Shown piece after piece: positions 30,079 to 54,857 of a DNA stretch of 61,608 nt. The stretch comes from a virus (taxonomy: Duplodnaviria > Caudoviricetes), in IMG/VR virus record IMGVR_UViG_3300025120_000048, positions 1-61,608 of that record. One strand, given 5' to 3'. Each line of letters begins with the position of its first letter. Position 1 is the stretch's first letter. The notes beneath the pieces were generated by a model that made no database searches, was not told the origin of the DNA, and worked only from the letters and a program-made list of their open reading frames with translations. The translations under genes were made by a program, and so were the position numbers.

Positions 30079-33000
30079 ATGAATGAAATAGAAGCTATTG
30101 TTCAGCGCATGATTGATGCAGGTGAATCTGAAGAAAATATTGCAGCTGTTATAAAATATTATGAATCCCAAGAATTGGGAAAGCAAACTCCCACAGCACC
30201 GGGTGCGGTTGTGGAGGAAACTGTAGCACCCGTAAGCGCAGATACGGAATTAGTTTCGGAAACCGTTTCTTCGGATTTACCGTCAGCTGAAGTATCTGGT
30301 TTTGAATCTATAAAAAATTCATTATATAATATTGGAACAGACTTTGGAAGAGTTGCTGATTTTTGGACAGGAGATTCAGCTGCTTTAGATATTGCAAGTG
30401 CTGCTATAGCTAACTCTGTTTTTGGTGAAGAAAATGTAGAAGAATTTATTAAAGAAAATAAAGACAATAAATTTATTACAGAAGGATTAGGTACTGAAGA
30501 AATTTTAGAAAAAATACCAGAAAGAGAAAAAGAAAAACAATTACGTAAACCTACTCTTGAAATTATTGAAAGCTTTAAAGAAGGTGAGTTTTTAAAAGGA
30601 GGAGCTGCAATAGCAAGTGCTTTTTTAAATACAGTAGGATCAGCAGCTTATGGTGTTTTAACTGCAGGGGCTGGATATTTCATGGACTATGCAGCAGATA
30701 ATTATATAGAATACAATAAAGGATTAGCTAAAAGAAAAGGAAAATCATTAGAACAACTTATACAAGATGACGAAGCAGATACAGCTAAACCTATGGGTAT
30801 TGCATACTTCCAAGCTTTTGCTGAAAATACTGGTCTTGGTAAAATGATTGCTCCGTTAAAAAAAGAAGCTGCTAAATCAATATCTAAAACTATTATTGGA
30901 AGACAATTTGGTGCTAAAGGATTAGCGGTTTTAGGAGCCGCAAGAGTTGAAGCTGGAACTGAAATGTTCCAATATGGTGCTGAAGAATATAATAAAAAAT
31001 TAGGTGAAACTGGTAGTCAAAAAGAGGCTGCTGGAGAATTTGTTAATGCTGTATTTTCACAACAAGGATTTGAAAGCGGATTACAAGGAGCTTTTGGAGG
31101 TGCAGGTATGAAAGGAGCTAGATTGTTAGCTAGTAGTAATTCAAGACCACCTTCGGACGTTAAAGCAATAAATCAAGAACTTGAAGAACTTACTGTTTTA
31201 AATAAACAATATAATCTTTCAAGATCACCAACAGTAAAAGAAGGTATACAAAATCAAATAGACGAAGTTAAAGCTAAAATAACTACTCGTGTAACAGAAA
31301 ATAATGATAAAATAAATAAACTATCTGATACACAAATTGATGAAATAAATAATTTAGGAGATTTAGCTAATACACAAATTTCAAAAGTTCAAAAGTTAAA
31401 TGAAGAATTTGATGAAGGTAAGATTAATAGAAAACAATATAATACAGCTTTAAAAGGATTTAAAACAGCATATGAAGATTCTCAAAATAGGATTAATAAT
31501 ATTATGCTTGAAAAAAACATTGAAAAAGCAACACAAGCTGTTTCAGAAATATCTGATATAAATGTTGAATCTTTTGAAAATGCTGCAGCTATAAATGAAT
31601 TTTTACAGCAAAACATACCAGGCAAAGTAAGTCAAAAAGCTTCTGAACAGCAAGCATTTATTATACAAAATCGTAATACAGGTAAACAAACTATTGTAAT
31701 AAATAAAGAAATAGCTAAAAAAGACCAAGCAGTTACAGCTCCTTTCCATGAAGTTTTACATGCGTTGCTTTACAAAACCGTTAAAGGTAATCCCGAAGCT
31801 CAGCTTAATTTAGGAAATGCTCTTAGTAAATATTTAAATAAAATTGATGTTAATCAAGTTAAGGATAGTAAATACGCTCAAAGATTAAATCAATATAAAA
31901 ACAAATCTGCTGAAGAACAAGCAGAAGAAGCTATAACTTTATTTTCTGATGCATTAGCTACGGGTGATATTACTTTTAATGAAAATATATTTACTAAAAT
32001 AGGTGATGTAATAAGAAGAACTCTTCAAGCTGCTGGTGTTAAAGTTAAATTTAATACTGGTAGAGATGTATATAATTTTGTTAAGGATTACAATAAAAAT
32101 ATTTCAGAAGGTAAATTAAGTAAATCTCAAATAGCATTAACAGAAACAAAAGCAACAGGTAAGTTAACAGAAACAGAAGCAGAAACTGTTAATGAAATTG
32201 AACCACAAACTGTTAAAGAAGATGAAACAGGTGAACGTGGTCTGTTTGATTTGCTTAAAGCAATAAAAGAAGCTGAAAGTATTGTAAAAGAATCTAAAGC
32301 TGATATTGCATCTGACAAAGTTCAAGAATTATACGATGCAAAAGGTGTAGATAGTGCTCTTGAAATAATTAATTTATTCAAACCTATAACAAATAAAATA
32401 GTACAAAAAAGAAGAGATGCTCCTAATTTTGATAAAGAACTTTTAGAAAGTGAAATTGAAATAGGTCAAAGAGGAATATTAGATTTAATTAGAGCATATA
32501 AACCAGATTCAGGTGTGCCATTAGCCGCTTATATAAACAAATATTTACCAGCTAGAGCTATAGAAGCTTCACGTCGTATATTAGGTGAAAAGTTTACAGA
32601 AGATGTTACAGAAGCTAGAGGTGTTGCAGCAACAGAAGTTACAGATGATATTGTAACACAGTCACAAGATAAAGAATCTAAAGATGCACGTAAAAGTTTA
32701 AGAAGAGAAATAAATTTAAATGAAGCAGCAGTACAGGAAGTACGTGATTCAGTTAAGAAAACATTTGGTACTAAATTACCGCCTGTTGATAGTAAAAAAT
32801 TTAAAGCAGCTTTAACAAAAAGTTTTAGAAATGATTTAACTAAAACATTTAAAAATTTATTAGGTACTGGTGTTGCATATAAGCAATACTTAGATGATAA
32901 TTTTGAAAAAATATTTAAAGCTATTCCTCAACAAACACTTAATAAAAAGTTTTCTGGTTTATTTACTGAAGAAGTTATAAATGAAGAAGGTAAACAATTA

Positions 33001-36000
33001 AGAGAAAAAACACAAATAGGTAAAAAAGTATTTAAACCAAAATCTGAAATAACTAAACAAGAGTTTATTGATTACTTTACTGGGCCTAGCGTATATGCTA
33101 ATTTAGCAAACTCACGTAAAACATCGTTATCACAATTACTTGCAGATGAAATAGCTTTAGATGCTACAATGGAGGTTATACAAAAACCTGAAGTTGCAGA
33201 AAAAAGAGAATTTTTAGATAAAGAACAAAAAACTGAAGAAGTTAGTAGAATTATTGATAGACCAATAGATTTTAAATTTTCTAAATCATTAAATAATGGC
33301 CTTAGTATTATTGGTAATCATGATTCATTATTGTCTATTAAATATTCTAAAACTTCTAGAAAAAATTACGAAAATATATTAAAAGCTAAAAGACCAGAAT
33401 TAAAAGATATACCTAAACAAGTTGATAATTTATTTGATTGGGTTAATAAACTAGATGTACCCAAAAACAAAAAAAGTAAATATGAAAAACTAGCTTTATT
33501 TTACATGGGTAATGGTTATTTAATTTTACCTGAAGATGGATATAAAGTTGAAGATGCTATTAAAATTGCTGCTAATAAAAAATTAGATCCTTTTAGTTTT
33601 AAAAATCCTAATGAATTATTAGAAAAGTTTTCAGGAGTAATTAAACCTAAAAGAATTAATCCAGATAAATTTTTAAACAAAACTTTTTTAGATAAAAGAA
33701 GATTTAAAGATGGAATAGATGTTTATGAAGTTATAAATACTAAACAAGCTCAACTAGATGTTAGAAAAATAATTGATTCTAATTGGGGTGAAAAAGCTAA
33801 TCCTTGGTGTATTGCTGCTAGTATAGATGGAAATTTAGATGAAGCATTTAAGTATTGGAAAAGCTATGGAAGTGGTAAAGAAATAGCTTTTAAAGATGGT
33901 AAGCTATTAGCTTTTAAGGCTAATAATCAATGGTGGGACCGCATGGACCAACCAACAGATAATTTAATTTATAAATTACCAAAAAACAAACAAGGACTTA
34001 GGGAAATTAGATCATTAGATACTGATTCACTTGTTTTAAATTCATCACTAAATAACGCAAATAATGTTAATAGTAAGTTTGAAGGTTATATAAAAGGTTC
34101 AAAAGAATCAAATAATTATGAATTATATAATAAAAATAAAGAACTTACTACATTTTATAAATATGCTTCTGATAAACAAGAAATATTTAACAATAATATA
34201 AAAAACGGATTATATCAAAAGTGGCTTGATGAAGATGAAAATGCTAAATTTGATATGACATTTTATAAAATAGTTCCAAATGGAATTGCTGAAATGGATA
34301 TTGAAGATTATTATCCGGATCCAAATTCAGAATTTAATTCAATACTCCCTTGGGAAATAGTATCAAAAACAAATTTTTTAAAATCACAAAAAGAGGTAAC
34401 ATCAAATAGAGCAGTAGATAAATATATAAATAAAGGTACACACACATTTAAAAGTGGTAAAAACATATATAAAGTTTTTATAGATAGCAAAAACAAATTA
34501 ATAATTAGAGAATTTAATGGAGTAAAATTTATTTTAGGTCAAGATTTAATGCAAGACGCACTTCGCAAAGCTGAATTTAATATAGAAAATTTTAAAGCTT
34601 TAAAAAATGGAGAAGAAGTTAAAAATCCTTTTAATTTTAATTCGAATTCTGCTAATATTCCATTAGAAATAAGACAATTAATAGCAGATAGTGCTTTTCT
34701 TATTGATTCAAAAGGACAACCTATAGTAAATCAAAGTAAACTTAAAAGTTACACAATAAAAAGTGCAAATACAATTAAATTTTCTAAATCACTTTCAGAA
34801 GATTTTAATAAAATACTTGAAGACAAAACAGGTATTTCTGCAGATAAAGTATATGATCAAGCAACAGCTAATGCGGCTGGTGCGAAAAAAGGAAGATTTA
34901 AATTTTTTATCCCACCTTCTGCTGAAGATTTTGTTGGTTTATTATATGCTACTCTAGGAAAAGGTAAAAAAGGTGATAAACAAATGGATTTTTATAAAAA
35001 ATCTTTATTAAATCCTTATGCTAAAGCAATGGGAGAAATAGCTAAAGAGCGTGTTGCGTTAACCGCTAGATATAAAGCTATTGCTAAAACATTTAAAATA
35101 GCTCCTAAAAATTTACGTAAAAAAATTGAAGGTGAAGAATTTACTAGAGAACAAGCTGTCCGTGTATATATGTGGAATAAAGATGGCATTGAAATACCCG
35201 GTTTAGAATTAAAAAATGCTGATAAACTAATTAAATACGTTGAAAAAAACAAAAAATTAAAAGATTTTGGAGATCAATTATTAGCTATGCAACCAGATGG
35301 ATTAGCAACACCAACAGCTGGTTGGACTTCTGGTTCAATTGACCAGGATATATTAGCTTCATTAAATACAATCAAAAGAAAACAATATTTAGAAGATTGG
35401 CAAAGTAATGTTGATGCTATTTTTAGTAATGAAAATTTAAATAAACTTCAAGCAATTTATGGTAAACCATATAGAATTGCATTAGAAAACATACTTAAAC
35501 GTATGGAAACTGGTCGTAATAGATCTTATGGTGGAGATGCTCTTACTACTAGACTTACTAATTGGATTTCAAATTCTGTAGGTGCTATTATGTTTTTTAA
35601 TACAAGATCAGCTGTACTTCAAACAATATCATCAATTAACTTTATTAATTGGTCTGATAATAATTTATTAGCTGCAGCAAGTGCATTTGCTAATCAAAAA
35701 CAATATTGGTCTGATTTTGCAAAACTAATGAATTCTGACTTTTTAAAAGACAGAAGAGGCGGTTTAAAAATAAATGTAAATGAAACTGATATTGCTGAAA
35801 TGGCTGCAAATGATTCAAATAAAGCTAGAGGAGTTATAAGTGGTTTACTTAAATTAGGATTTTTGCCTACACAAATTGCAGATAGTTTTGCTATTGCATC
35901 AGGTGGTTCAACATTCTATAGAAATAGAATTAAATCATTAATGAAAGAAGGCATGCCAAAAGCTGAAGCAGAAAAACAAGCGATGATTGATTTTAGTGAA

Positions 36001-36798
36001 GCAGCTGAAGAATCACAACAATCAAGTAGGCCTGATAGAATTAGTCAGCAACAAGCGGGTCCATTAGGACGCATGATACTAGCTTTTGCAAACACACCTG
36101 CTCAGTATGCTAGATTAACTAAAAAAGCTATTTTGGATCTTAAAAATAGACGTGGTGATGCTAAAGCTAATATTTCAAAGATAATTTATTACGGAGTAGC
36201 ACAAAATATCATATTTACAGCATTACAGCAAGCTTTATTTGCAACATTGTTTGATGATGAAGAAGAAGAAAAAGAATCTGATAAATATATAAAAGGTGCT
36301 AATAGCATGCTTGATAGTTTTTTAAGAGGTATTGGATTTGCCGGAGCAGCAGTTTCTGTTGTAAAAAATATAGGATTAAAAATTGTAGAGCAATCTAAAA
36401 AGAAAAGCCCTAAATATGAAGATGCGGCATTAAAATTATTAGATATATCACCACCTATATCCTCTAAAATTTCTAAACTGCGATCTGCGGGTAGAATTTA
36501 TTCATGGAATAAAAAAGAAATAAATGAAAAAGGATTAAGTTTTGATAATCCAGCTAATGAAGCTATAGGTAAATTAACATCAGCATTTATTAATTTACCA
36601 CTTGATAGAGCTATACAAAAAGCAGATAACATACAAAATGCTTTAGCAGAAGAAACAGATACATGGCAAAGAATTGCACTATTAGCTGGTTGGAAAGATT
36701 GGGAATTAGGAATGCAAGAAAAAAAGAAAAAGAAATCTAAAGGAACAAGAAGCAGAACACGTACACGAACAAGAACTAGAACAAGAAAAAGAAATTAA
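30079..36798 (+). CDS. Giant multi-domain putative ejection (polyvalent) protein with zincin and sigma region-2-like modules
   Basis: 2239 aa; HEVLH at 31747-31761; sigma2-like segment 32365-32577; PWCI..QWWD module; helical Gly/Ala-rich ends; (RT)n tail. Confidence 0.7.
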   Translation: MNEIEAIVQRMIDAGESEENIAAVIKYYESQELGKQTPTAPGAVVEETVAPVSADTELVSETVSSDLPSAEVSGFESIKNSLYNIGTDFGRVADFWTGDSAALDIASAAIANSVFGEENVEEFIKENKDNKFITEGLGTEEILEKIPEREKEKQLRKPTLEIIESFKEGEFLKGGAAIASAFLNTVGSAAYGVLTAGAGYFMDYAADNYIEYNKGLAKRKGKSLEQLIQDDEADTAKPMGIAYFQAFAENTGLGKMIAPLKKEAAKSISKTIIGRQFGAKGLAVLGAARVEAGTEMFQYGAEEYNKKLGETGSQKEAAGEFVNAVFSQQGFESGLQGAFGGAGMKGARLLASSNSRPPSDVKAINQELEELTVLNKQYNLSRSPTVKEGIQNQIDEVKAKITTRVTENNDKINKLSDTQIDEINNLGDLANTQISKVQKLNEEFDEGKINRKQYNTALKGFKTAYEDSQNRINNIMLEKNIEKATQAVSEISDINVESFENAAAINEFLQQNIPGKVSQKASEQQAFIIQNRNTGKQTIVINKEIAKKDQAVTAPFHEVLHALLYKTVKGNPEAQLNLGNALSKYLNKIDVNQVKDSKYAQRLNQYKNKSAEEQAEEAITLFSDALATGDITFNENIFTKIGDVIRRTLQAAGVKVKFNTGRDVYNFVKDYNKNISEGKLSKSQIALTETKATGKLTETEAETVNEIEPQTVKEDETGERGLFDLLKAIKEAESIVKESKADIASDKVQELYDAKGVDSALEIINLFKPITNKIVQKRRDAPNFDKELLESEIEIGQRGILDLIRAYKPDSGVPLAAYINKYLPARAIEASRRILGEKFTEDVTEARGVAATEVTDDIVTQSQDKESKDARKSLRREINLNEAAVQEVRDSVKKTFGTKLPPVDSKKFKAALTKSFRNDLTKTFKNLLGTGVAYKQYLDDNFEKIFKAIPQQTLNKKFSGLFTEEVINEEGKQLREKTQIGKKVFKPKSEITKQEFIDYFTGPSVYANLANSRKTSLSQLLADEIALDATMEVIQKPEVAEKREFLDKEQKTEEVSRIIDRPIDFKFSKSLNNGLSIIGNHDSLLSIKYSKTSRKNYENILKAKRPELKDIPKQVDNLFDWVNKLDVPKNKKSKYEKLALFYMGNGYLILPEDGYKVEDAIKIAANKKLDPFSFKNPNELLEKFSGVIKPKRINPDKFLNKTFLDKRRFKDGIDVYEVINTKQAQLDVRKIIDSNWGEKANPWCIAASIDGNLDEAFKYWKSYGSGKEIAFKDGKLLAFKANNQWWDRMDQPTDNLIYKLPKNKQGLREIRSLDTDSLVLNSSLNNANNVNSKFEGYIKGSKESNNYELYNKNKELTTFYKYASDKQEIFNNNIKNGLYQKWLDEDENAKFDMTFYKIVPNGIAEMDIEDYYPDPNSEFNSILPWEIVSKTNFLKSQKEVTSNRAVDKYINKGTHTFKSGKNIYKVFIDSKNKLIIREFNGVKFILGQDLMQDALRKAEFNIENFKALKNGEEVKNPFNFNSNSANIPLEIRQLIADSAFLIDSKGQPIVNQSKLKSYTIKSANTIKFSKSLSEDFNKILEDKTGISADKVYDQATANAAGAKKGRFKFFIPPSAEDFVGLLYATLGKGKKGDKQMDFYKKSLLNPYAKAMGEIAKERVALTARYKAIAKTFKIAPKNLRKKIEGEEFTREQAVRVYMWNKDGIEIPGLELKNADKLIKYVEKNKKLKDFGDQLLAMQPDGLATPTAGWTSGSIDQDILASLNTIKRKQYLEDWQSNVDAIFSNENLNKLQAIYGKPYRIALENILKRMETGRNRSYGGDALTTRLTNWISNSVGAIMFFNTRSAVLQTISSINFINWSDNNLLAAASAFANQKQYWSDFAKLMNSDFLKDRRGGLKINVNETDIAEMAANDSNKARGVISGLLKLGFLPTQIADSFAIASGGSTFYRNRIKSLMKEGMPKAEAEKQAMIDFSEAAEESQQSSRPDRISQQQAGPLGRMILAFANTPAQYARLTKKAILDLKNRRGDAKANISKIIYYGVAQNIIFTALQQALFATLFDDEEEEKESDKYIKGANSMLDSFLRGIGFAGAAVSVVKNIGLKIVEQSKKKSPKYEDAALKLLDISPPISSKISKLRSAGRIYSWNKKEINEKGLSFDNPANEAIGKLTSAFINLPLDRAIQKADNIQNALAEETDTWQRIALLAGWKDWELGMQEKKKKKSKGTRSRTRTRTRTRTRKRN

Positions 36799-37936: not shown

Positions 37937-39682
37937 CTATCCATCACAGGATAAACAATCGGGATCCATAGCTTTAGCAGCTATATCTCCTCTAAGTACT
38001 GATTCAGTACGCATATAATATAAAGTTTTAATTCCTTTTTTCCATGCTTCCAAATGTATTTTATTAATCCATTTTGGTTCAGCTACAGAAGGAAAAGCTA
38101 AATTTAAACTTACTGATTGATCTATATAATCTTGACGTATACCAGCTTGACTAACTAATTCAAGTTGATTAATTTCTTTAAATGTTTTAAATACATTTTT
38201 TACAGGCTCACCATCTTCTTCGGTAAGTCTTCCAAGGTGATCGTAAAACCATCCATCGAGTTCTTTAATGTCTTGTACGGATCCGCCATCTTCAAGAATC
38301 TTATCCCAAGTTTCTTTAACATCAATTCCAATTTTTCTAAATAATTTTTTAAGTTCATTGTTTTTTCTTATGAATGTACCTTTAGCTGATTGTTCTGTAA
38401 ATACATTAGCAGCCCAAGGTTCAATTCCTGGTGATATATTACCACTAAGTTTACTATTAGATACTGTTGGGGCTACAGCTCTTAAATGAGTATTACGCAT
38501 TTCAGTTCCTGCACACCATAATGGTTCGCCATATACTTCAGCAAGCTTACGTGAAGCTCTTTCTGTTTCAATTTTAATTTTACTAAATATTTCTCTTGTT
38601 TTAAATTGAGCTAATAAACTTTCAAATGCAATACCTTTTTGTTGTAATAATGTATGCCATCCTAATACGCCTAAGCCTAACGCCCTACCTTTACTTGCAG
38701 ATCTTACAGCATTATCAAAACCTCTCATATTTTTAGCACGTTGAATAAACTCTTCCATAACGCCATCTAAAAACCATGTAGCATCATATACTAAGTTTGT
38801 GTTTTTCCATTCATCGTATTTAGCTAAATTTAATGAAGATAAACAGCAAACAAAAGAATGAGATTCATCTGTATGTAATGTTATTTCAGAACATATATTT
38901 GTCATATGAACTTTGAGCCCATTTGATTTATACGCTTTTGGGTTACTCTTGTTTGTATTTCCCTTAAAGAGAATATAAGGCTCTCCAGTTGCTTTACGTT
39001 TTTGTAATAATTTTGCCCATTTTTGTCTAGATTCTGGATCTCCTTGCTCAAGTCTTCGCATAAACTTGTCACCGACCACAGCGCACTGGTGTAAATTAAG
39101 TGATTGTCTGTTAACATCTCCTTTTGGTTCTCTGATCTCCAACCATTCTTCAAAGTCGGGGTGATCAATATTGATGTTAACTGATGCAGCTCCTCTGCGG
39201 ACAGATCCTTGATTAGTGGCAAGTATAGTTGAATCGTATATCTTGCAAAATGGCACCACTCCATCAGACGTTCCATTACCTGTAATTTTAGCACCGGCAG
39301 GACGAATCATATTTATTCCGATACCTACACCCCCACCGTGTTTTGCAAGTAACATCATTTCTAAATTTTTTTGACCTATGTCTGCAATTGAATCCGCAAC
39401 ATCAATCCCAAAACAACTAATAGGTAAACCTCGATCTGTACCTGTATTTGACAGCACAGGTGAAGCTAAACATAACCAACCTTTCCATATATAATCAAAA
39501 AACTTTTCAGCAAGCTCAGGTTTGTATAAACGCCTAGCAACAGCTTTACTTACTCTTTCATAAGCATCTTTTGGTGATTCATCTAATACTAAATAACCAC
39601 CACTTATAGTTTTTTTATATACTTCAGTATCTCCCCATGAAGGATAATCAACACCTTTTTTCCAGTTATTATTCCAAGCCAT
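37937..39682 (-). CDS. nrdA: Ribonucleotide reductase class I alpha subunit (short, no ATP cone)
   Basis: PISCF, GGGVG, QGSVRRGA, TNICSEI, APTVS, KTLYY, C-terminal CLSC. Confidence 0.93.
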   Translation of the reverse strand: MAWNNNWKKGVDYPSWGDTEVYKKTISGGYLVLDESPKDAYERVSKAVARRLYKPELAEKFFDYIWKGWLCLASPVLSNTGTDRGLPISCFGIDVADSIADIGQKNLEMMLLAKHGGGVGIGINMIRPAGAKITGNGTSDGVVPFCKIYDSTILATNQGSVRRGAASVNINIDHPDFEEWLEIREPKGDVNRQSLNLHQCAVVGDKFMRRLEQGDPESRQKWAKLLQKRKATGEPYILFKGNTNKSNPKAYKSNGLKVHMTNICSEITLHTDESHSFVCCLSSLNLAKYDEWKNTNLVYDATWFLDGVMEEFIQRAKNMRGFDNAVRSASKGRALGLGVLGWHTLLQQKGIAFESLLAQFKTREIFSKIKIETERASRKLAEVYGEPLWCAGTEMRNTHLRAVAPTVSNSKLSGNISPGIEPWAANVFTEQSAKGTFIRKNNELKKLFRKIGIDVKETWDKILEDGGSVQDIKELDGWFYDHLGRLTEEDGEPVKNVFKTFKEINQLELVSQAGIRQDYIDQSVSLNLAFPSVAEPKWINKIHLEAWKKGIKTLYYMRTESVLRGDIAAKAMDPDCLSCDG

Positions 39683-39908
39683 CAAGATCTAATTTTTTTT
39701 CATTAGCTTTTGATTTTTCTTTTTCATCAATGTCTTTCATTTTTTTTACAATTTTTTGCCATTCATCTTCTCCCATAAATAATTGTAACGCAGTTATAGT
39801 ACCGCGAGATAAGCTATCAAGCTTAACAAAGTCATTAATTATTTGTTGCATTACTTTAGTTAATGATGCAATTTTATTTTGCATTTCAATTAAATTCTTT
39901 TCTTTCAT
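39669..39908 (-). CDS. Hypothetical protein
   Basis: ORF inside the nrd operon overlapping its neighbours. Confidence 0.6.
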   Translation of the reverse strand: MKEKNLIEMQNKIASLTKVMQQIINDFVKLDSLSRGTITALQLFMGEDEWQKIVKKMKDIDEKEKSKANEKKLDLDGLE

Positions 39909-40032
39909 TTTTTTTAATTTGATTTAATGCTTGTTGTAAATGTTCTTTTTCCCAATGCATTCTATACTCAAAACCCCCGGAAAATGTTTTATTACATTGG
40001 CTACATTTAATTATTTTAGTCTTTTGGTTCAT
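39886..40032 (-). CDS. 48-aa C2H2 zinc-finger microprotein
   Basis: Manual translation MNQKTKIIKCSQCNKTFSGGFEYRMHWEKEHLQQ...; TAATG-coupled to the nrdB stop. Confidence 0.6.
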   Translation of the reverse strand: MNQKTKIIKCSQCNKTFSGGFEYRMHWEKEHLQQALNQIKKNERKEFN

Positions 40033-41000
40033 TACCAAATATCTTCAAAATCTTCTCCTTCGTTTGCTTTAGAATAATCGGTTGGGCGTACTGCAAAAAA
40101 ATCAGTATGAGTATGACCACCGGTAAGATGATAAAACCAATCAAGTTTGTTTGCTCCTTTACTGTCAAAACTAAAGTACTTCCCGAGGTGCGTGTATCCA
40201 AGTTCTTGTAACTTTTCATTAAGTCTTTTTCGAATAAATTGTTTGAGATCGTAGGCTTTAAGATTTTCAATATCTCCTTGTTCGAACATTTTATCAATAT
40301 ATCGTTCTTCTGCTTTAAGCATTGACTCTGCTGCATTTATTATATCTGTTTTACAATCTTCTAATAATTTATTATTTTCTTGACACATATGTCTAAATAA
40401 TTGACAACCCATTTTACTATGCAATGATTCATCGCGAACAGACCATTTCATTTGTTGACCAATTCCTTTTAATAAATTTCTTAATTGAAAAGAATATAAT
40501 ACAGCAAAAGCAGAATAAAGACTGACTCCTTCAGCAAAAGCAGAAAAAATAGCCAAGGACTTTGCGATACCAACCAACTTAGTTCCTTCATAAGCGACGA
40601 GGTTGTTAAATCGCTCCATAGTTGCTTCATCTTGTAAAAAAGCTTCAAAATTTTCAAGTCCAAGTGTTTCATTTAAATAAGAATAAGCTACTGCATGAAT
40701 TGTTTCTTGTGAACCAAACATCATGGCCATTTGTTTTATTTCATGCTTAGGAAACCATGATACAACTTTTTGCGTCCAATAATCAGATACCGCACACTCT
40801 GTTTGAGCAAACCCCAAAAGTATATTTCCCACCAAATTTTTTTCACCTTTGGTAAGCTTTTCATTCCAATCCTTAACATCACCTGACATTGGTATCTCGG
40901 TATGTAACCAAAATGCTTGAGCTTGTTTAAGCCATCCCTCAGTATAGTATTCTGGATATTCAAATGGTTTGTATGGAATTCTTTCATCAAATAAACTCAT
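40032..41000 (-). CDS. nrdB: Ribonucleotide reductase class I beta subunit
   Basis: KPFEYP, FW...E, ETIH...Y, EG..L.S.F, RDESLH, DFF..R.TDY. Confidence 0.93.
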   Translation of the reverse strand: MSLFDERIPYKPFEYPEYYTEGWLKQAQAFWLHTEIPMSGDVKDWNEKLTKGEKNLVGNILLGFAQTECAVSDYWTQKVVSWFPKHEIKQMAMMFGSQETIHAVAYSYLNETLGLENFEAFLQDEATMERFNNLVAYEGTKLVGIAKSLAIFSAFAEGVSLYSAFAVLYSFQLRNLLKGIGQQMKWSVRDESLHSKMGCQLFRHMCQENNKLLEDCKTDIINAAESMLKAEERYIDKMFEQGDIENLKAYDLKQFIRKRLNEKLQELGYTHLGKYFSFDSKGANKLDWFYHLTGGHTHTDFFAVRPTDYSKANEGEDFEDIW

Positions 41001-41003
41001 ATT

Positions 41004-41138
41004 TTATCTTTCAACTTTTAATGCTATATCTACAAAAGGTAAATATATAACATGTTCAATAAATGTTTTTTCAACATAACTTCTCATCCCAATAAGAACT
41101 CCGGGATATAACCCTATAGATAAATCCCAGCTTTTCAT
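41004..41138 (-). CDS. 44-aa hypothetical protein
   Basis: MKSWDLSIGLYPGVLIGMRSY...; ATGA-coupled. Confidence 0.55.
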   Translation of the reverse strand: MKSWDLSIGLYPGVLIGMRSYVEKTFIEHVIYLPFVDIALKVER

Positions 41139-41269
41139 CGTCCTTGTCCTTTATATAATTTAATATAATTTTTACTATGTTTTAACCCCGAAGTTTTAGT
41201 TTTAGCATGCACACCGGGCCTACGCACTTTAGATTTTCTATTATAATTGTTTAATACTAATTTAGCCAT
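41135..41269 (-). CDS. 44-aa basic protein ending YKGQGR
   Basis: MAKLVLNNYNRKSKVRRPGVHAKTKTS...YKGQGR. Confidence 0.6.
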   Translation of the reverse strand: MAKLVLNNYNRKSKVRRPGVHAKTKTSGLKHSKNYIKLYKGQGR

Positions 41270-42808: not shown

Positions 42809-42811
42809 AAT

Positions 42812-43348: not shown

Positions 43349-43358
43349 AATATTTAAT

Positions 43359-46466: not shown

Positions 46467-46480
46467 TAGATTAAATTTAA

Positions 46481-47733: not shown

Positions 47734-47777
47734 TCGTTTGTGTTTTAAATTAGTAATTGGTATTTTGGTATTTGATG

Positions 47778-48539
47778 TTAAAGATAATCAAAAATTTGAT
47801 TTGACTCAACATTTTCAATTAATTTTTTTACTGCTTCTTTTTTTATTTCTGAAATTCTCACATAAGCACTCGGCCCTTCAATTTTTAATAAATCCGCTAT
47901 TTGATTAGCGCTATGCTTATCACAATCAAGACCATAGCTTAATCTTAAGATTTCATATTCTTTTTTATTTAAATGTTTTTTAAGTAAACTTTGCAAATAT
48001 ATATTCATTAAACCAATATTATACGGCTCAGATTGATCAGGTATTTGATATAAGCCATAATCGTCATCTTCATTAATTTGTTCATCAATACTTAAAAATA
48101 TTGAATTAAAAAACATAGCTACCATCTTTTGATTTTTACCATTGTCTTTTCTTATTTCATTTAATTTGTGTTCTGGTATTCTTATATCACCTCTATTAAT
48201 ATCTATGGCTCTTCTTATTGCGCCTTTAATTCTCTTTGATAAAAATGATTTAAGAGTTTTTTCAGGTTCAGTTGATGCTTCTATTGTTTCCCATATAATT
48301 TTATCTACGGCTCTAATTAATCCTAAGCTTCCATCTTGAATTAAATCATTAATACTCATTACGCCACTTGCTTGTTGAGAAGTTGCAAATTTACGCCCGA
48401 TATTTTCGACTAATGGTAAAAACATTGTAATTAATTCGTTTCTGTTATATTCTTTTAATTCTTTTAGCTCGATATTATTTATTGAATCTGTTAAATCTAA
48501 TTTATATCGGATATAATTTCTTACATTATATTTTTTCAT
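47778..48539 (-). CDS. Sigma-70 family RNA polymerase sigma factor
   Basis: LPLVENIGRKF...DLIQDG.LGLIRAVDK, RI.GAIRRAI...IRIP, region 4 L...E..IL.L.YGL...IA..L. Confidence 0.85.
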   Translation of the reverse strand: MKKYNVRNYIRYKLDLTDSINNIELKELKEYNRNELITMFLPLVENIGRKFATSQQASGVMSINDLIQDGSLGLIRAVDKIIWETIEASTEPEKTLKSFLSKRIKGAIRRAIDINRGDIRIPEHKLNEIRKDNGKNQKMVAMFFNSIFLSIDEQINEDDDYGLYQIPDQSEPYNIGLMNIYLQSLLKKHLNKKEYEILRLSYGLDCDKHSANQIADLLKIEGPSAYVRISEIKKEAVKKLIENVESNQIFDYL

Positions 48540-50440: not shown

Positions 50441-50474
50441 ATTATTATCTAATTTAATACGTATTTGCTTCGTG
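50441..50474 (-). promoter_or_regulatory. Early promoter-like motif P1
   Basis: Minus strand CACGAAGCAAATACGTATTAAATTAGATAATAAT, 16 nt from ATG 50425. Confidence 0.7.
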
Positions 50475-50666
50475 TTACTTTATTCTTAACTCATCACCAT
50501 TATTGTATCTTATCCAGATTTCAATATTTGTAATTTCTTTGTCTAATGCTTCATTGTATCCATCAACGGGATCATCACTTGTTGAAAAATAACCTCCTTT
50601 AAAATCAGGATAATCTCCTTCAATATAAAACGTATCTATATCTTTAAATTTGTATTCTTGTTTCAT
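50475..50666 (-). CDS. Small acidic hypothetical protein
   Basis: ORF in the early operon. Confidence 0.55.
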   Translation of the reverse strand: MKQEYKFKDIDTFYIEGDYPDFKGGYFSTSDDPVDGYNEALDKEITNIEIWIRYNNGDELRIK

Positions 50667-50808
50667 ATCTTAGGCTTTCTTTCTTTATTTGGTTTGTGTA
50701 CATAATACCCAACGATCGGATTGACTAAATAATTCCACCAATCCGAAGGAAATTTTTTTGCATCTGTTATTATTAATTTTTTTTTGTCTATATATTTTTT
50801 TTGCATTT

Positions 50809-51018
50809 TTATAAATTAAATATTGTTTCCATATCTCGCCAGTCATAACATTCTTTATTAGGAAGCTTAGCAAGTTTTTTAAAGTATCTGTCTCGTGTTT
50901 CTTTAATACCCAATTGGGCTCCTATAGTAATTGAAATCCATATTATAGCAATATACTTTAATACGCTTTTAAAAATAGGATTAGAAAGCTTATTTATCAT
51001 CTTCTTCATTGTGTTCAT
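50809..51018 (-). CDS. Small single-TM protein
   Basis: Hydrophobic YIAIIWISITIGA segment; start uncertain. Confidence 0.5.
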   Translation of the reverse strand: MNTMKKMINKLSNPIFKSVLKYIAIIWISITIGAQLGIKETRDRYFKKLAKLPNKECYDWRDMETIFNL

Positions 51019-51307
51019 CTATATAGTCTTGTACTTCACTATCAGGCAAATATATTTCTATGTCTGATATATATACAATTGAATCTTTGTCAAGCTCTTT
51101 AATTCGATCAATAATTTGATCAAAAGATGGTTCATAATAATATACATCATATTCAAAATCAAGGTTTCTTGCGTCTTGTGTTATTACGTGTAATGTATAA
51201 CCATCTGCGGTATTCCATTCACCTATTTCAAGTTCAACACCGGTTTTGTAATCTTCTGAAATTTCGGCCACACCTAAAAGCATGGCCAGTTTTTTTATGT
51301 TATTCAT
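50990..51307 (-). CDS. Highly acidic protein
   Basis: About 28 D/E in 105 aa by manual count. Confidence 0.65.
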   Translation of the reverse strand: MNNIKKLAMLLGVAEISEDYKTGVELEIGEWNTADGYTLHVITQDARNLDFEYDVYYYEPSFDQIIDRIKELDKDSIVYISDIEIYLPDSEVQDYIDEHNEEDDK

Positions 51308-51308
51308 T

Positions 51309-51539
51309 TTATTTGTTTTTAGTTATTAAATCTTTATTTTTTGGTTCAGGTCTAGTATAACGATTTTCAGCATAAGCTCTAAGCTCAATTGTAAAATAGT
51401 CAACTATATCAGATAATTCAAAGCCATCATCTATTAAAGGTTTCATTTGTTCAGCATTTAATTCCATTGTGTATTTGCCAATTATAGTAGACATGCGATC
51501 GAATTTTGCTTTGTAATCAAAGTAAGTTTGTAAGTTCAT
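51309..51539 (-). CDS. Hypothetical early protein
   Basis: Directly downstream of motif P2. Confidence 0.65.
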   Translation of the reverse strand: MNLQTYFDYKAKFDRMSTIIGKYTMELNAEQMKPLIDDGFELSDIVDYFTIELRAYAENRYTRPEPKNKDLITKNK

Positions 51540-51563
51540 TTTATTTATTTTTTAAGGTTCATA

Positions 51564-51597
51564 TATATTATCCAGAAGCTTACGTATTTGCTTCGTG
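51564..51597 (-). promoter_or_regulatory. Early promoter-like motif P2
   Basis: Minus strand CACGAAGCAAATACGTAAGCTTCTGGATAATATA. Confidence 0.75.
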
Positions 51598-51789
51598 TAT
51601 TGTTAATCCTAATTCATTCGCAACATAATTAATATGCTTTGAAGTGGCTGGGCTTGAGGTCATACCTCTTACATTCCATTTTAATTTGTAAAGTTTATTA
51701 TCTTTAATCTCAGCAACACGGGTATTATATGAGATTATGTCATTGCCGATCTGTTTTAGATTTACTTTGTATTTGTCAAATGTTTTCAT
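51580..51789 (-). CDS. Conserved small phage protein
   Basis: SYNTRVA...S.AT.KHIN pattern. Confidence 0.65.
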   Translation of the reverse strand: MKTFDKYKVNLKQIGNDIISYNTRVAEIKDNKLYKLKWNVRGMTSSPATSKHINYVANELGLTIHEANT

Positions 51790-51986
51790 TTTATCATTTT
51801 TTTAATTAATGTAAATAAGAGTTGTTGTTTTATTTTAAATTCTAATTCAAATAAATCAGGGTTTTTAAAATTCTCATCATTATTATCTGTGAGTTGCCAA
51901 TGTATTGTTTTATCAATGTGATATTCAACTTCTTCAATGCATTGATTCGCAATTTTTGATATCATATTTTTCATATTAGTATCCAT
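51786..51986 (-). CDS. Hypothetical early protein
   Basis: Coupled ORF. Confidence 0.55.
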   Translation of the reverse strand: MDTNMKNMISKIANQCIEEVEYHIDKTIHWQLTDNNDENFKNPDLFELEFKIKQQLLFTLIKKMIK

Positions 51987-52176
51987 ATTTGTTGTAATGT
52001 TTAATTGTTTCCAAGCTTGCTTTATTAAACGCGCTTACTCTTTGTCTATACTTTTCATCAGTACAATACTTTTTCATAGCATACACATTTGTTTGGCCAT
52101 GATCGGTACCATATTGTTTTTCAAAGTCTGCTATTTGTAATAGCTTTGCATCAATCATTTTTTTAGTTATATCCAT
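51976..52176 (-). CDS. Hypothetical early protein
   Basis: Start moved to MDITKK at 52176, 19 nt below motif P3. Confidence 0.6.
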   Translation of the reverse strand: MDITKKMIDAKLLQIADFEKQYGTDHGQTNVYAMKKYCTDEKYRQRVSAFNKASLETIKHYNKYGY

Positions 52177-52194
52177 TTTATTTTGTTTTACGTT

Positions 52195-52228
52195 TATATT
52201 ATCCAATTCAATCCGTGTTTGCTTCGTA
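52195..52228 (-). promoter_or_regulatory. Early promoter-like motif P3
   Basis: Minus strand TACGAAGCAAACACGGATTGAATTGGATAATATA. Confidence 0.75.
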
Positions 52229-52369
52229 TAGGAATAAAGCTCCTTCGTGACATGCCCCACACATTCCTGTATTGTATTTATCTATTTCACCTAAAGGAGA
52301 TTCACCACAGCAATTTGATAACCATTGCCCATTTCTTTCTAATCCTAAGTAGATCATATTATTCATCAT
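52208..52369 (-). CDS. 53-aa Cys-rich (Zn-binding?) protein
   Basis: Manual translation ...WLSNCCGESP...GMCGACHEGA...YEANTD. Confidence 0.6.
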   Translation of the reverse strand: MMNNMIYLGLERNGQWLSNCCGESPLGEIDKYNTGMCGACHEGALFLYEANTD

Positions 52370-52370
52370 A

Positions 52371-52706
52371 TTAATTCCAAATTGTACTATCAGTTAAAAC
52401 TTTTTCCATCTCATTCCATTGGACCGTGTCATTAGATTCATTTAATGCATCCCACAAAGCATTGTATCCAGCTTGATGCCAATTGTTAGGTCTACCAAAA
52501 TCTAAATGTGTATCAAAAATATCGTAGTTTAATTCGTCACAATATTCTTTGCATTCATAAGTGTTAGTTGTTTTGTTGTCAATCCATTCAGTTTTTAAAG
52601 TATCTAAATCATTAGATTCGTTTATTTCTCCTTGATGAAATGCATACCATGCATCATCTGAAAATTCCTGGGCTATCTCGTCTATTTTATAATTTGAATT
52701 GTGCAT
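52371..52706 (-). CDS. Acidic protein, possible Ocr-like DNA mimic
   Basis: 24 D/E versus 6 K/R in 111 aa; I....DL.......DN....Y pattern. Confidence 0.55.
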   Translation of the reverse strand: MHNSNYKIDEIAQEFSDDAWYAFHQGEINESNDLDTLKTEWIDNKTTNTYECKEYCDELNYDIFDTHLDFGRPNNWHQAGYNALWDALNESNDTVQWNEMEKVLTDSTIWN

Positions 52707-52718
52707 TTTATTTTGGTT

Positions 52719-52934
52719 TTATTTGTTATATAATATGTCTGCTAATGTTTCACCAATTTCAGAAAAGTATTGGGCTTTGCCTATCATTTCTAGCATTGCT
52801 TCACTTTCCATTTTGGAGAGGTCATTGCCATCTTCATCTTTGCCATTAGTATTTATTAATTGCTCTGCGTAGTCTATACAATCTTGCAAATCTAAGTTTG
52901 TATTGTGAAATCTACAGTGGGTCATATTGCTCAT
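52719..52934 (-). CDS. Conserved small phage protein
   Basis: MSNM..CRF.NT..DL.DC...LS..E pattern. Confidence 0.65.
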   Translation of the reverse strand: MSNMTHCRFHNTNLDLQDCIDYAEQLINTNGKDEDGNDLSKMESEAMLEMIGKAQYFSEIGETLADILYNK

Positions 52935-52953
52935 CTTTCTTTGGTTTTAAGGT

Positions 52954-53133
52954 TTATATGGTTTTATATTTTTGTATTAATTTAGTAATGTCTTTTAAGT
53001 TTGAGAAGTGATAATGGTATATAACTTCATCTTTGTAATTAAGTACTGTGAAATCATACATTTTAAATTCAGGTGCATAAGCAATTTGAAAAAATGTTTG
53101 TGATTTTGGATTGTTATTAAAATATTTAGACAT
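52954..53133 (-). CDS. Hypothetical early protein
   Basis: Start moved to MSKYF at 53133, 23 nt below motif P4. Confidence 0.55.
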   Translation of the reverse strand: MSKYFNNNPKSQTFFQIAYAPEFKMYDFTVLNYKDEVIYHYHFSNLKDITKLIQKYKTI

Positions 53134-53155
53134 TTTATTTGTTTTTATGTTCATT

Positions 53156-53189
53156 TATATTATCCAATTCAACACGTGTTTACTCCGTG
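53156..53189 (-). promoter_or_regulatory. Early promoter-like motif P4
   Basis: Minus strand CACGGAGTAAACACGTGTTGAATTGGATAATATA. Confidence 0.75.
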
Positions 53190-53375
53190 TTTTTACACTT
53201 CCGTCAACAGACATAAAAAAATATCCCTAATTTAATGCTAAATAACTCTTAAAGCATTGAAATAAATAAACTTATTAAAATCCTCTTTATCTCCCAAAAG
53301 GGGGTAAAATATTTGTATTGTAACAAAGTGTTGTATATGTAACACTTTATGTGTATTTATATAATACCAATTATA

Positions 53376-53422
53376 TGTGACATTAGGTAGTTATATATAT
53401 ATAATAACAGGCTATTGTCACA
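53376..53422. repeat. Inverted-repeat site IR2
   Basis: TGTGACATTAG-N25-CTATTGTCACA with (TA)n in the spacer. Confidence 0.75.
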
Positions 53423-53582
53423 CTACAATATAAGTTTCTTTAGCTTCTTTTCTTAATTTATACAAGAGGTCTAATTCTTCTTTGAATGAATCCATATCTT
53501 TTGTAAAATTATTTGTACCGTTTGAAATATAAACAAACAATGCTTCTATTAAAATTCCTTCTTCTTTGTTATTAATTTTCAT
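53418..53582 (-). CDS. 54-aa early protein (paralogue of 54113..54256)
   Basis: MKINNKEEGILIEAL...; below motif P5. Confidence 0.65.
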   Translation of the reverse strand: MKINNKEEGILIEALFVYISNGTNNFTKDMDSFKEELDLLYKLRKEAKETYIVV

Positions 53583-53596
53583 AAGTGTATATTTAT

Positions 53597-53630
53597 TTTA
53601 TTATCCAACTAAGCACGTGTTTGCTCCGTA
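53597..53630 (-). promoter_or_regulatory. Early promoter-like motif P5
   Basis: Minus strand TACGGAGCAAACACGTGCTTAGTTGGATAATAAA. Confidence 0.75.
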
Positions 53631-53638
53631 TGGGCTTT

Positions 53639-53670
53639 AAAAAAAAACCTCAACTAAGGGAGAGGTTTTT
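53639..53670 (-). terminator. Intrinsic terminator
   Basis: AAAAACCTC...GAGGTTTTT hairpin with a U-tract on the minus strand. Confidence 0.65.
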
Positions 53671-53685
53671 ATTTTTTAATTTAAT

Positions 53686-53883
53686 TTATTTTGTAAAATC
53701 GTAGATTCTTAAATACCATTCTTCTATATTTTCATTATATTTCATTTCACAATTTTCTTTAACTATTACATTTTCCATTATTATTTTTTCATTAAAGATT
53801 TGTTCTTTTGTACCATAATAATCTGTTTTAAAGATTTTATTTAATTCTTCTTTAACTAAACTATTTAATATTTGTGAATTCAT
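53686..53883 (-). CDS. Hypothetical early protein
   Basis: Between motif P6 and the terminator. Confidence 0.6.
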   Translation of the reverse strand: MNSQILNSLVKEELNKIFKTDYYGTKEQIFNEKIIMENVIVKENCEMKYNENIEEWYLRIYDFTK

Positions 53884-53906
53884 ATTTATATTTTTAAAGT
53901 TATAAT

Positions 53907-53940
53907 TATATTATCCAAGTTAGGACGTGTTTGCTTCGTG
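53907..53940 (-). promoter_or_regulatory. Early promoter-like motif P6
   Basis: Minus strand CACGAAGCAAACACGTCCTAACTTGGATAATATA. Confidence 0.75.
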
Positions 53941-53948
53941 CTTGATAT

Positions 53949-53976
53949 AAAAAAACCTCAACACAATGTGAGGTTT
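53949..53976 (-). terminator. Intrinsic terminator
   Basis: AAACCTCA...TGAGGTTT hairpin with a U-tract on the minus strand. Confidence 0.65.
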
Positions 53977-53984
53977 AATTTATT

Positions 53985-54116
53985 TTATTTTATAATTTCC
54001 CAATCAGAATTTTCAAATTGATAACTGAACTCACTATCCCAGAGCATTTCTTCCATTACTTTATTTATTTCTTTTTCACTTAAATGTGTTTCTAATGTAA
54101 TTTTAATATTTCTCAT
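53985..54116 (-). CDS. 43-aa early protein
   Basis: MRNIKITLETHLSEKEINKVMEEMLWDSEF...; ATGA-coupled. Confidence 0.55.
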   Translation of the reverse strand: MRNIKITLETHLSEKEINKVMEEMLWDSEFSYQFENSDWEIIK

Positions 54117-54256
54117 ATTTTTATTCTTAGTAAATTTAACAATTCAATATCTTCCTTATAATCTTCCATATCAACAGAAAAATCATCTGTTAAATGCTCA
54201 AGGGAAAAATGTAAATGCTCAAGTAAAAGTAATCTTTGTTTATTATTAATAGTCAT
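54113..54256 (-). CDS. 47-aa early protein (paralogue of 53418..53582)
   Basis: MTINNKQRLLLLEHL...; below motif P7. Confidence 0.65.
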   Translation of the reverse strand: MTINNKQRLLLLEHLHFSLEHLTDDFSVDMEDYKEDIELLNLLRIKI

Positions 54257-54279
54257 AATGTATAGTTTTAAGTTATAAA

Positions 54280-54313
54280 TTTATTATCCAAATCAGGACG
54301 TGTTTGCCCCGTG
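54280..54313 (-). promoter_or_regulatory. Early promoter-like motif P7
   Basis: Minus strand CACGGGGCAAACACGTCCTGATTTGGATAATAAA. Confidence 0.75.
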
Positions 54314-54329
54314 TTCGGTCGACCTCGAG

Positions 54330-54355
54330 TCGGGCTCGAAGTGCGGGATGAGGTT
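54330..54355. repeat. GC-rich 26-bp repeat, copy A
   Basis: TCGGGCTCGAAGTGCGGGATGAGGTT; 22/26 identical to 54621..54646. Confidence 0.7.
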
Positions 54356-54377
54356 GGCTCGCGGTATCGTGCGAGGT

Positions 54378-54551
54378 CTACCAGGTAGGCCCTGGATCGG
54401 GATTTATCGGGCAGCATAATCCTAGGCTAAGAAGAGTTTCAATTCTATCTTCTAAATAGTCTAGATCCTTTATTTCTTTACTAGTTAAATTATCCATTTC
54501 TATAACAGCATTAATTATTTCTCTGTTGTACTTTTCTATTAGCTTTCGCAT
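54378..54551 (-). CDS. 57-aa early protein
   Basis: MRKLIEKYNREIINAVIEMD...; below motif P8. Confidence 0.55.
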   Translation of the reverse strand: MRKLIEKYNREIINAVIEMDNLTSKEIKDLDYLEDRIETLLSLGLCCPINPDPGPTW

Positions 54552-54574
54552 AATTTATATTTTTAGATTATAAC

Positions 54575-54608
54575 ATTATTATCCAGATCAAGACGTATCT
54601 GCTCCGTA
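54575..54608 (-). promoter_or_regulatory. Early promoter-like motif P8
   Basis: Minus strand TACGGAGCAGATACGTCTTGATCTGGATAATAAT. Confidence 0.75.
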
Positions 54609-54620
54609 CCTGGTTAGCTC

Positions 54621-54646
54621 TCGGGCTCGCAGTACCGGGTGAGGTT
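54621..54646. repeat. GC-rich 26-bp repeat, copy B
   Basis: TCGGGCTCGCAGTACCGGGTGAGGTT. Confidence 0.7.
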
Positions 54647-54803
54647 AAGCCAAATAGCAAATTAGATTGACCGCGCGAGGTGTTACCGGTCCCTCCAGCA
54701 CTTCCTCCAATGCTTGTTGGAAATCTTCTAATTCAATGGTTCCATTTTTGTAACATTCAACATGGAACAATACTTCTTTTTTAATAGTTTCAATTGAGTT
54801 CAT
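54645..54803 (-). CDS. 52-aa early protein
   Basis: MNSIETIKKEVLFHVECYKNG...; below motif P9. Confidence 0.55.
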   Translation of the reverse strand: MNSIETIKKEVLFHVECYKNGTIELEDFQQALEEVLEGPVTPRAVNLICYLA

Positions 54804-54823
54804 ATGTAAAAATTTAATTCAAA

Positions 54824-54857
54824 TATATTATCCAAATTAGTACGTGTTTCCCCCGTA
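54824..54857 (-). promoter_or_regulatory. Early promoter-like motif P9
   Basis: Minus strand TACGGGGGAAACACGTACTAATTTGGATAATATA. Confidence 0.7.

Follow-up and report, generated by a model that had tools for sequence, protein, structure and literature searches.

Phages are known to start transcription either with a virion-packaged polymerase (N4, crAss-like phages, phiKZ) or through covalent modification of the host RNA polymerase (RNAP), as by T4 Alt. In the Bacteroidota, host sigma-A reads unusual promoters, and to our knowledge the start of transcription in phages of these bacteria is poorly known. Podoviruses have ejection (internal virion) proteins, such as T7 gp14-16 and P22 gp7/16/20, and T4 encodes a late sigma of 185 aa, gp55. 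According to the main text of Iyer et al. (2017; PMC5512222), the virion RNAPs of N4-like phages are always fused to zincin-like metallopeptidases (MPTases) in "polyvalent" proteins, a kind that occurs in phages and conjugative elements; the authors proposed processing and a "jump-start" of transcription, and linked the MPTase to anthrax lethal factor by HHpred (P = 4.1e-4). In T4 gp55, as described in PMC7892883, a sigmaR2 homology domain is the sole sigma-type part; the protein uses an acidic helix to bind the beta-prime clamp helices of RNAP, reads a -10-like element, and supports basal initiation. Here we describe a giant open reading frame (ORF) in a window of 61,608 bases that makes up the whole of IMG/VR virus record IMGVR_UViG_3300025120_000048 (completeness estimate, 96%). 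Its product carries a sigma-70 region-2-like (sigma2) domain beside a zincin-like protease domain, which suggests that a module for hijacking transcription is delivered along with the phage DNA.

A preliminary description of the window had noticed the sigma-like stretch within this protein. The peptide that it quoted does lie at 31747-32577, in frame 1, and corresponds to aa 557-833 of the 2239-aa ORF; however, the "residues ~740-1065" that it gave are inconsistent with its nucleotide coordinates, the sigma-like core being aa 763-833. In our best reading, the giant would be a polyvalent protein of the virion whose sigma2 module, of a new type, targets RNAP. When the whole protein was searched, no Pfam family matched at E ≤ 1 and no PHROGs family at E ≤ 0.01. 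Its parts are as follows.

30079..36798, + strand: giant ORF, 2239 aa (ORF list and translation)
31561..32178, + strand: zincin-like (gluzincin-type) metallopeptidase domain, aa 495-700, with HExxH and a conserved Glu
31747-31761, + strand: HExxH (HEVLH), aa 557-561
31927-31929, + strand: E617, a conserved Glu and candidate third ligand
32287..32298, + strand: K-E-S-K motif at the border of the zincin-like and sigma-like domains, aa 737-740, a candidate processing site
32299..32613, + strand: sigma2 domain, aa 741-845
32365-32577, + strand: sigma2 core matching regions 2.1-2.4, aa 763-833 (IINLFKP...EASRR)
32689..33273, + strand: Lys-rich helical region of unassigned fold, aa 871-1065, following an acidic linker
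33274..33285, + strand: K-F-S-K motif closing the sigma-like module, aa 1066-1069
33286..34776, + strand: lineage-specific insert of ~497 aa, aa 1070-1566
34777..34788, + strand: second K-F-S-K motif, at the start of the C-terminal module, aa 1567-1570
34789..36795, + strand: conserved C-terminal module, aa 1571-2239, with a basic K/R/T tail at its end

When a profile of 39 diverse sequences of the sigma-like domain (A2) was run against 177,635 PDB sequences, 12 matches were obtained at E ≤ 10, with sigma factors at ranks 2-4, i.e., 8b3z_A (SigE, E = 0.049), 8vjl_B (sigma-K, E = 0.17), and 5h6x_A (RpoS, E = 0.21). All three placed A2 positions 24-85 on regions 2.1-2.3 in identical register, and the near-invariant A2 residues I53, G59, Y67, and L75 correspond to four conserved positions of the sigma signature (I, G, F, and F). 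The G..G(I/L) element, the F/Y preceding D/K-P, and a Tyr at the "TYA" position were also aligned and are conserved in the family. The window itself encodes a free sigma factor with which the domain could be compared.

47778..48539, - strand: free phage sigma factor gene, 253 aa, with Pfam Sigma70_r2 at aa 36-112 (E = 1.6e-5)

Comparison of A2 with an alignment of this free sigma (A3) by hhalign gave P = 0.0017 and set columns 23-93 on free-sigma residues 35-116, i.e., on its Pfam Sigma70_r2 range. In a search of the window's ORFs of at least 60 aa with A2, the free sigma was the best match other than the giant itself (rank 1 of 118, E = 0.32), and in the same search of a relative, G014, the free sigma also ranked 1 of 155 (E = 0.034); both were aligned to region 2.

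The predicted structure agrees with these alignments. An AlphaFold2 model made from A2 without templates had a pLDDT of 93-96 over residues 11-90, and above 90 over ~100 residues. Foldseek returned 133 matches at E ≤ 10 among 350,542 PDB chains, and within the best 50 of these only three (ranks 12, 14, and 35) were plainly unrelated, the rest being sigma factors, holoenzymes, or initiation complexes. The top match was the SigE N-terminal domain (probability 0.99, TM(target) 0.71, rmsd 2.8 Å over 82 columns), and domain 2 of Mtb SigA was also among the best. In BFVD, ranks 2-4, 7, and 9 were phage sigma factors, with probabilities of up to 1.00. The model thus has the helical bundle of regions 2.1-2.4 that characterizes sigma domain 2, with all Foldseek E-values at 0.0056 or above. 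In the ESM Atlas, Sigma70_r2 clusters accounted for 27 of 30 named neighbors with a score of 0.97; according to the tool, about 1 in 100 shuffled proteins scores at least 0.95. The sigma-70 region-2-like fold that had been proposed from the letters of the window is therefore borne out by profile, AlphaFold2/Foldseek, BFVD, and ESM Atlas alike, and we consider the domain at aa 741-845 to be very probably a true, but very diverged, sigma domain 2. Like region 2 of SigE, SigK, and RpoS (PF04542), it has the predicted fold, the helix order, and G..G(L/I) and (F/Y)-D/K-P..G..(F/L)..Y in register; unlike them, it falls below the Pfam threshold, is embedded in 2239 aa, and is accompanied by no detected regions 3 and 4. 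We read it as nearer to group-3-type and phage sigmas than to extracytoplasmic function (ECF) sigmas. Rank 1 in BFVD was A0A218ML07_1, an uncharacterized 1475-residue piece from an uncultured virus (E = 0.0056, 21% identity), which could either belong to this family or represent another, more distantly related giant that carries the same domain.

A zincin-like domain immediately precedes the sigma-like domain in 225 of the 262 family members examined, the two being separated by -2 to 183 residues. The preliminary description had the sigma-like stretch follow a zincin motif, HEVLH, and conservation agrees with it: H557, E558, H561, and E617 (H63, E64, H67, and E123 in domain numbering) are invariant in 36 of 36 diverse sequences, and each is present in at least 90% of 232 aligned stretches from the 225 members having the zincin region. 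The AlphaFold2 model of the domain (mean pLDDT 88.3) has strands at 2-5, 32-36, and 43-48, then a helix at 60-74 bearing HExxH, with E617 on a later helix; strands followed by an HExxH helix and a later Glu form what we take to be the gluzincin layout. Neither a Pfam match (including the LPD and MPTase families) nor a PDB sequence match was found for this domain. Foldseek put anthrax lethal factor at rank 1 (E = 0.18, probability 0.33) and rank 9 (E = 2.9), which is not significant. Since this is the same nearest structure as that reported for the MPTase in the main text of Iyer et al. (2017), aa 495-700 is probably a zincin-like peptidase of the polyvalent-protein type.

Together these domains give the giant the architecture of a polyvalent protein, i.e., a very large protein of disparate modules, an MPTase among them, encoded with virion genes; the giant fits that kind by architecture, and its delivery would follow by analogy. 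As in the polyvalent proteins described in the main text of PMC5512222, an HExxH zincin-like domain stands beside a transcription module, and the nearest peptidase structure is anthrax lethal factor in both (here by Foldseek). Unlike in the N4-like proteins, the module is a sigma2-like domain rather than a polymerase, and the packaging of the giant is a prediction. The word "sigma" does not occur in the main text of Iyer et al. (2017), although the supplementary domain tables may bear on this point, and among the main texts covered by our literature search we found none that describes a virion protein or polyvalent protein with a sigma domain. With T4 gp55, as it is described in PMC7892883, the domain shares a sigma region-2-type fold without region 4, and the family has a conserved acidic D/E-E-I-E helix in the corresponding position. 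gp55 differs in being a free protein, made in the cell and not part of a virion protein, whose full activity depends on gp33 and the sliding clamp. A sigma module would widen the catalog of effector domains of polyvalent proteins.

The giant belongs to a large family: 1050 proteins reached E ≤ 0.001 when 8000 candidates were scored, and 419 representatives of 50%-identity clusters did so, 200 of them at E ≤ 1e-30. Nearly all of the 419 are 1000-3400 aa long. The family has 72 loci in IMG/VR and sequences from many ocean metagenomes, so that the mechanism proposed below, if true, applies to abundant uncultured viruses. Alignment of the best 120 homologues onto the giant revealed conserved blocks at aa 480-680, 720-1080, and 1560-2239. 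The sigma2 domain, aa 741-845, is the family's most conserved part, and within the middle block conservation peaks over the 40 residues at aa 801-840 (80% identity), which are part of the sigma-like stretch. Many other giants match only the first 130-160 residues of query aa 735-1075 (e.g., stretches 1-135 and 1-159), and therefore the sigma-like part (~aa 741-870) appears to be an independently moving domain; in part of the family the Lys-rich helical region is conserved along with it.

Three short Φ-K-[EF]-S-[KR] motifs stand at the module borders, conserved amid variable linkers, where they bracket a 326-aa unit (sigma2-like domain plus helical region) and the lineage-specific insert. At aa 737-740, K.S[KR] is present in 107 of 113 aligned members and K737 in all 113; at aa 1066-1069, K and F are each present in 80 of 81 and S in 79 of 81, with the strict K.S[KR] in 53 of 80; at aa 1567-1570, K.S[KR] is present in 90 of 103. 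From their sequence and placement, these K-x-S-K motifs may be cleavage sites. A metagenomic ORF of 346 aa on a 2243-nt contig (P0387) begins at the first border motif and ends just past the second, and thus consists of nothing but the sigma2-like and helical module, which might reflect a gene in its own right, recombination, or faulty assembly. A search for shorter, stand-alone forms gave 150 proteins, most of which are probably cut at contig ends.

The remaining modules of the giant are less readily assigned. The C-terminal module has 45-85% identity over about 105-114 family members, and no match to it was found in PDB, Pfam, or PHROGs, or by tblastn in cultured phages. The tail of the protein (36699-36795, + strand), KKKKKSKGTRSRTRTRTRTRTRKRN, is an Arg/Thr repeat, strongly basic and perhaps able to bind nucleic acid. 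Over aa 1081-1560 of the insert, coverage fell to 0-20 of the best 120 homologues, and a family search of aa 1070-1566 found none. This insert is Asn/Lys-rich, has KFSKSL on both sides, is missing from nearly all relatives, and looks like a recently acquired module.

The location of the giant was considered in light of its cultured relatives. The terminase and portal place the phage nearest to cultured podoviruses of Flavobacteriia (68 records from Flavobacterium, i.e., Elemovirus, 15 from Cellulophaga, 2 from Tenacibaculum, and 1 from Maribacter, plus 1 uncultured record), and contigs of the same phage type that bear ribonucleotide reductase (RNR) are mostly found in Flavobacteriaceae and Flavobacteriales bins of metagenome-assembled genomes (MAGs). 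The phage is an uncultured podophage of marine Flavobacteriia, related to Elemovirus and Callevirus. Its giant is the final gene of the + strand structural block, in which several upstream genes are named "virion structural proteins" by PHROGs.

11257-13464, + strand: terminase large subunit (PHROGs match)
13465-15876, + strand: portal (PHROGs match)
from 17137, + strand: capsid-type protein (PHROGs match), a neighbor of the giant
from 21545, + strand: 1434-aa structural protein (PHROGs match), a neighbor of the giant

The order of terminase, portal, capsid-type genes, a ~1400-aa protein, small genes, a ~500-650-aa gene, and a giant in last place is shared with MW202828.1 (giant of 3859 aa), with Elemovirus (gp18, 3694 aa, annotated "structural protein"), and with Cellulophaga phage phi40:1 (gp101, 1691 aa, structural by experimental MS/MS). 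Like ejection proteins and the giants gp18 and gp101, the protein is very large and is encoded at the end of a structural operon. By analogy with these positions, we think it fairly likely that the giant is packaged in the virion.

The candidate transcription signals of the window lie on the opposite strand. The preliminary description had reported nine non-host-type promoters at 50.4-54.9 kb with the free sigma gene downstream of them; the nine-copy motif and the position of the gene were both confirmed.

50445..54851, - strand: nine copies of TTATCYA-N8-CGTRTNTNC (as on the + strand), candidate early promoters
50003-50425, - strand: 140-aa ORF with a DnaA C-terminal (domain IV) helix-turn-helix (Pfam PF08299, E = 4e-12), just downstream of copy 1

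The nine matches compare with 0.04 expected, all are on one strand, and none of 100 shuffles reached nine. The motif spans ~30 nt, and each copy is ~20-30 nt upstream of a minus-strand ORF start; the ORFs behind the copies are small, and some units then have a hairpin and T-run (e.g., 53638-53685 and 53946-53993). The Bacteroidetes -33/-7 pattern was not enriched (5 matches vs. 4.75 expected). The free sigma gene has the same direction as the nine copies and is downstream of all of them, copy 1 included, which supports the view that something else must first read these sites. An RNAP of the phage itself was not seen: the preliminary description had found no polymerase motif in the giant, which indeed has no D.D.D string, and its claim that the window has no RNAP gene stood insofar as no RNAP family matched in 31 window ORFs searched with Pfam or 10 searched with PHROGs alone, a scan that was not exhaustive. 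No DNA polymerase family was matched among the scanned ORFs either.

We propose that the giant is most likely a polyvalent protein, which would be packaged in the virion and leave it together with the DNA. After entry, a ~37 kDa module (aa 741-1065, the sigma2-like domain and Lys-rich helical region) would be released at the K-x-S-K borders by the neighboring zincin, and its sigma2 domain would bind the beta-prime clamp helices of host RNAP. The host polymerase would be recruited to the incoming phage DNA, or re-programmed for it, before phage gene expression. The proposal builds on the fold and the conserved motifs, on how tightly the zincin and sigma2 domains are linked, and on where the gene lies, and from these we infer packaging, cleavage, RNAP binding, and an effect on transcription. 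A zincin beside a transcription-related module in the giant last gene of a virion operon, as in polyvalent proteins (main text of PMC5512222), together with the precedent of gp55, favors an ejected module that engages RNAP. gp55, as described in PMC7892883, shows that a sigma2-only factor is able to bind RNAP and initiate. The whole chain, from packaging and ejection of the protein to engagement of host RNAP by its sigma2 module as infection begins, we regard as a serious possibility that stops a little short of being probable; a sigma domain in a virion protein, if true, would be a new minimal solution to starting transcription. Once delivered, the module may initiate at the nine motifs, recruit RNAP to the entering DNA end, or block host sigma. 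In the most specific form, a lineage of marine and freshwater Flavobacteriia phages that has no virion RNAP injects a zincin-released sigma module that loads the host core and fires nine non-host-type early promoters. We consider this form doubtful; if true, it would be a third way to start phage transcription, besides host-type promoters and virion polymerases.

Several results weigh against the reading of an injected sigma module, and those that concern the fold are taken up here. The Foldseek lists consist mostly of sigma domain 2, but no match in PDB or BFVD reached E ≤ 0.001. The PDB profile search gave E-values of 0.05-0.2 for the sigma factors. The window's own sequence had no Pfam Sigma70_r2 match at E ≤ 1, and one family member of 39 had one (E = 0.021); above its gathering score, PF04542 did not match the domain, and a six-frame search of the window with it matched the free sigma only. 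When the segment was compared with the free sigma by BLASTP, the region-2 piece matched with E = 0.22. Against 25 ECF sigmas from two Flavobacteriaceae MAGs, hhalign with A2 gave P = 0.2, and against all 28 sigmas from these MAGs, P = 0.27; these alignments were not significant, yet they were in register with region 2. The A2 profile matched no bacterial sigma in four MAGs at E ≤ 10. In a sliding-window hhalign control that used a shallower alignment of the giant and was run against A3, windows on the domain gave P = 0.08-0.09, no better than the 0.02 of the best unrelated window. The Trp pair of region 2.3 is not conserved, its positions (assigned by the sigma70 numbering) being K-Y/F here and variable across the family. 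A sigma region 4 was not found either: aa 881-1080 had no usable named match in the ESM Atlas, and when windows 881-1040 and 921-1080 were compared by hhalign with the phage sigma, its regions 3-4 included, only short alignments resulted (P = 0.25-0.34). These searches revealed no other recognizable DNA-binding part beside the domain. With no region 4 found, the sigma-like module is not a complete sigma factor. Predicted complexes of A2 residues 1-105 with residues 150-450 of Swiss-Prot RPOC_FLAJ1 scored 0.68, 0.62, and 0.23 in three runs, and a control with chain 1 swapped scored 0.46; we count these scores neither for nor against binding. Two other searches were set aside, phmmer of aa 708-974 against PDB (a single kinase fragment, E = 0.79) and the whole-family profile A1 against PDB (two spurious matches). 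These weaknesses could mean that the domain is a generic four-helix bundle that converged on the sigma fold without sigma descent or function, as all of the E-values are above the usual thresholds and small helical domains often give spurious structural matches. However, four kinds of test agree on family and register (profile against sequences, ab initio fold against two libraries, language-model neighbors, and profile against the phage's own sigma), and the Atlas score is one that few shuffled proteins reach; convergence thus seems to us quite improbable.

Other results count against delivery and against the assignment of promoters. Neither the whole protein nor its C-terminal third gave a tblastn match in 50,697 cultured-phage records, so that no family member is among them. 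Although gp18 and gp101 resemble the giant in size and position, they have no detectable homology to it and no sigma-like domain, nor does the giant of MW202828.1, as sought by BLASTP and by hidden Markov models (HMMs) of the domain and of the C-terminal module. Since the cultured giants share neither sequence nor domain with it, its virion location is a matter of positional analogy only. The gene immediately upstream also showed no detectable relation to its counterpart in the cultured relatives, and the giant has only one weak hydrophobic segment. Alternatively, it could be a late polyprotein that is not ejected, with a sigma-like piece that acts in the cell (e.g., as a second late sigma), or with a sigma2 fold re-used for a structural or DNA-holding role in the capsid: packaging is deduced from position, without homology to giants verified by proteomics, its expression comes from the late structural operon, and the phage already has a complete free sigma. 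We judge this improbable, considering that the last-gene position is conserved in relatives whose product is in virions, that a zincin plus an effector is the architecture of injected polyvalent proteins, and that giants of 2000-3000 aa are atypical of regulatory proteins. If the module is delivered, it could still serve as a decoy that occupies the clamp helices, blocks host sigma-A, and shuts off host transcription, with another factor reading the nine promoters. Such a role would suit a domain limited to core binding and a -10-type function, with no region 4 found, in which the melting tryptophans are not conserved while the acidic region-2.2-like helix is, and phage inhibitors that displace sigma are known, e.g., P7, as described in PMC3985653. 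However, the strongest conservation (aa 801-840) covers the 2.3-2.4-like helix, which contacts DNA in sigmas, gp55 is a sigma2-only protein that is able to initiate, and by our own reasoning a few copies per virion would make a weak stoichiometric inhibitor of thousands of RNAP molecules. For these reasons we think a decoy unlikely.

The preferred reading, a delivered module that engages RNAP, also has to be squared with the motif itself, which is bipartite with a conserved upstream box that a sigma2-only module does not explain, and whose core, TTATCCA, is a DnaA-box-like word. Owing to this resemblance, the DnaA domain-IV protein encoded beside copy 1 may bind the repeated motif. Domain and motif go together in many of 19 relatives with the embedded domain, in which copies of a related motif, at ≤2 mismatches, cluster on one strand (G017, 13; G010, 8; G002, 7; G004, 7; a cluster also in G018), compared to 0-3 in reversed-pattern controls; G014 has only two motif-like copies on the expected strand. 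All 19 also have a free sigma (18 by PF04542, G014 by the A3 HMM only), and three cultured relatives have no embedded domain, no motif at ≤1 mismatch, and no free-sigma match. Since domain, free sigma, and motif travel together, co-occurrence cannot assign the motif to the embedded domain, and this too calls for caution in reading the nine copies as its promoters.

Elsewhere in the window, a GroEL-type chaperonin is encoded at 3388-4941 on the + strand (Pfam Cpn60_TCP1, E = 2.5e-60). The minus-strand arm at 37937-49155 encodes the large and small subunits of RNR, thymidylate synthase, a MazG-like protein, and a CAP-domain protein, as well as a Toprim-DnaB primase-helicase, a PDDEXK (DUF3799) nuclease, and an ERF recombinase. 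Two phage RNR copies (L077 and L078), with 90-91% identity to that of the window, are found ~65 kb apart on contig CBDICL010000005.1 (117,301 bases) of a Flavobacteriaceae MAG, and the arrangement suggests that a closely related phage genome, present as a head-to-tail dimer, was binned with a possible host.

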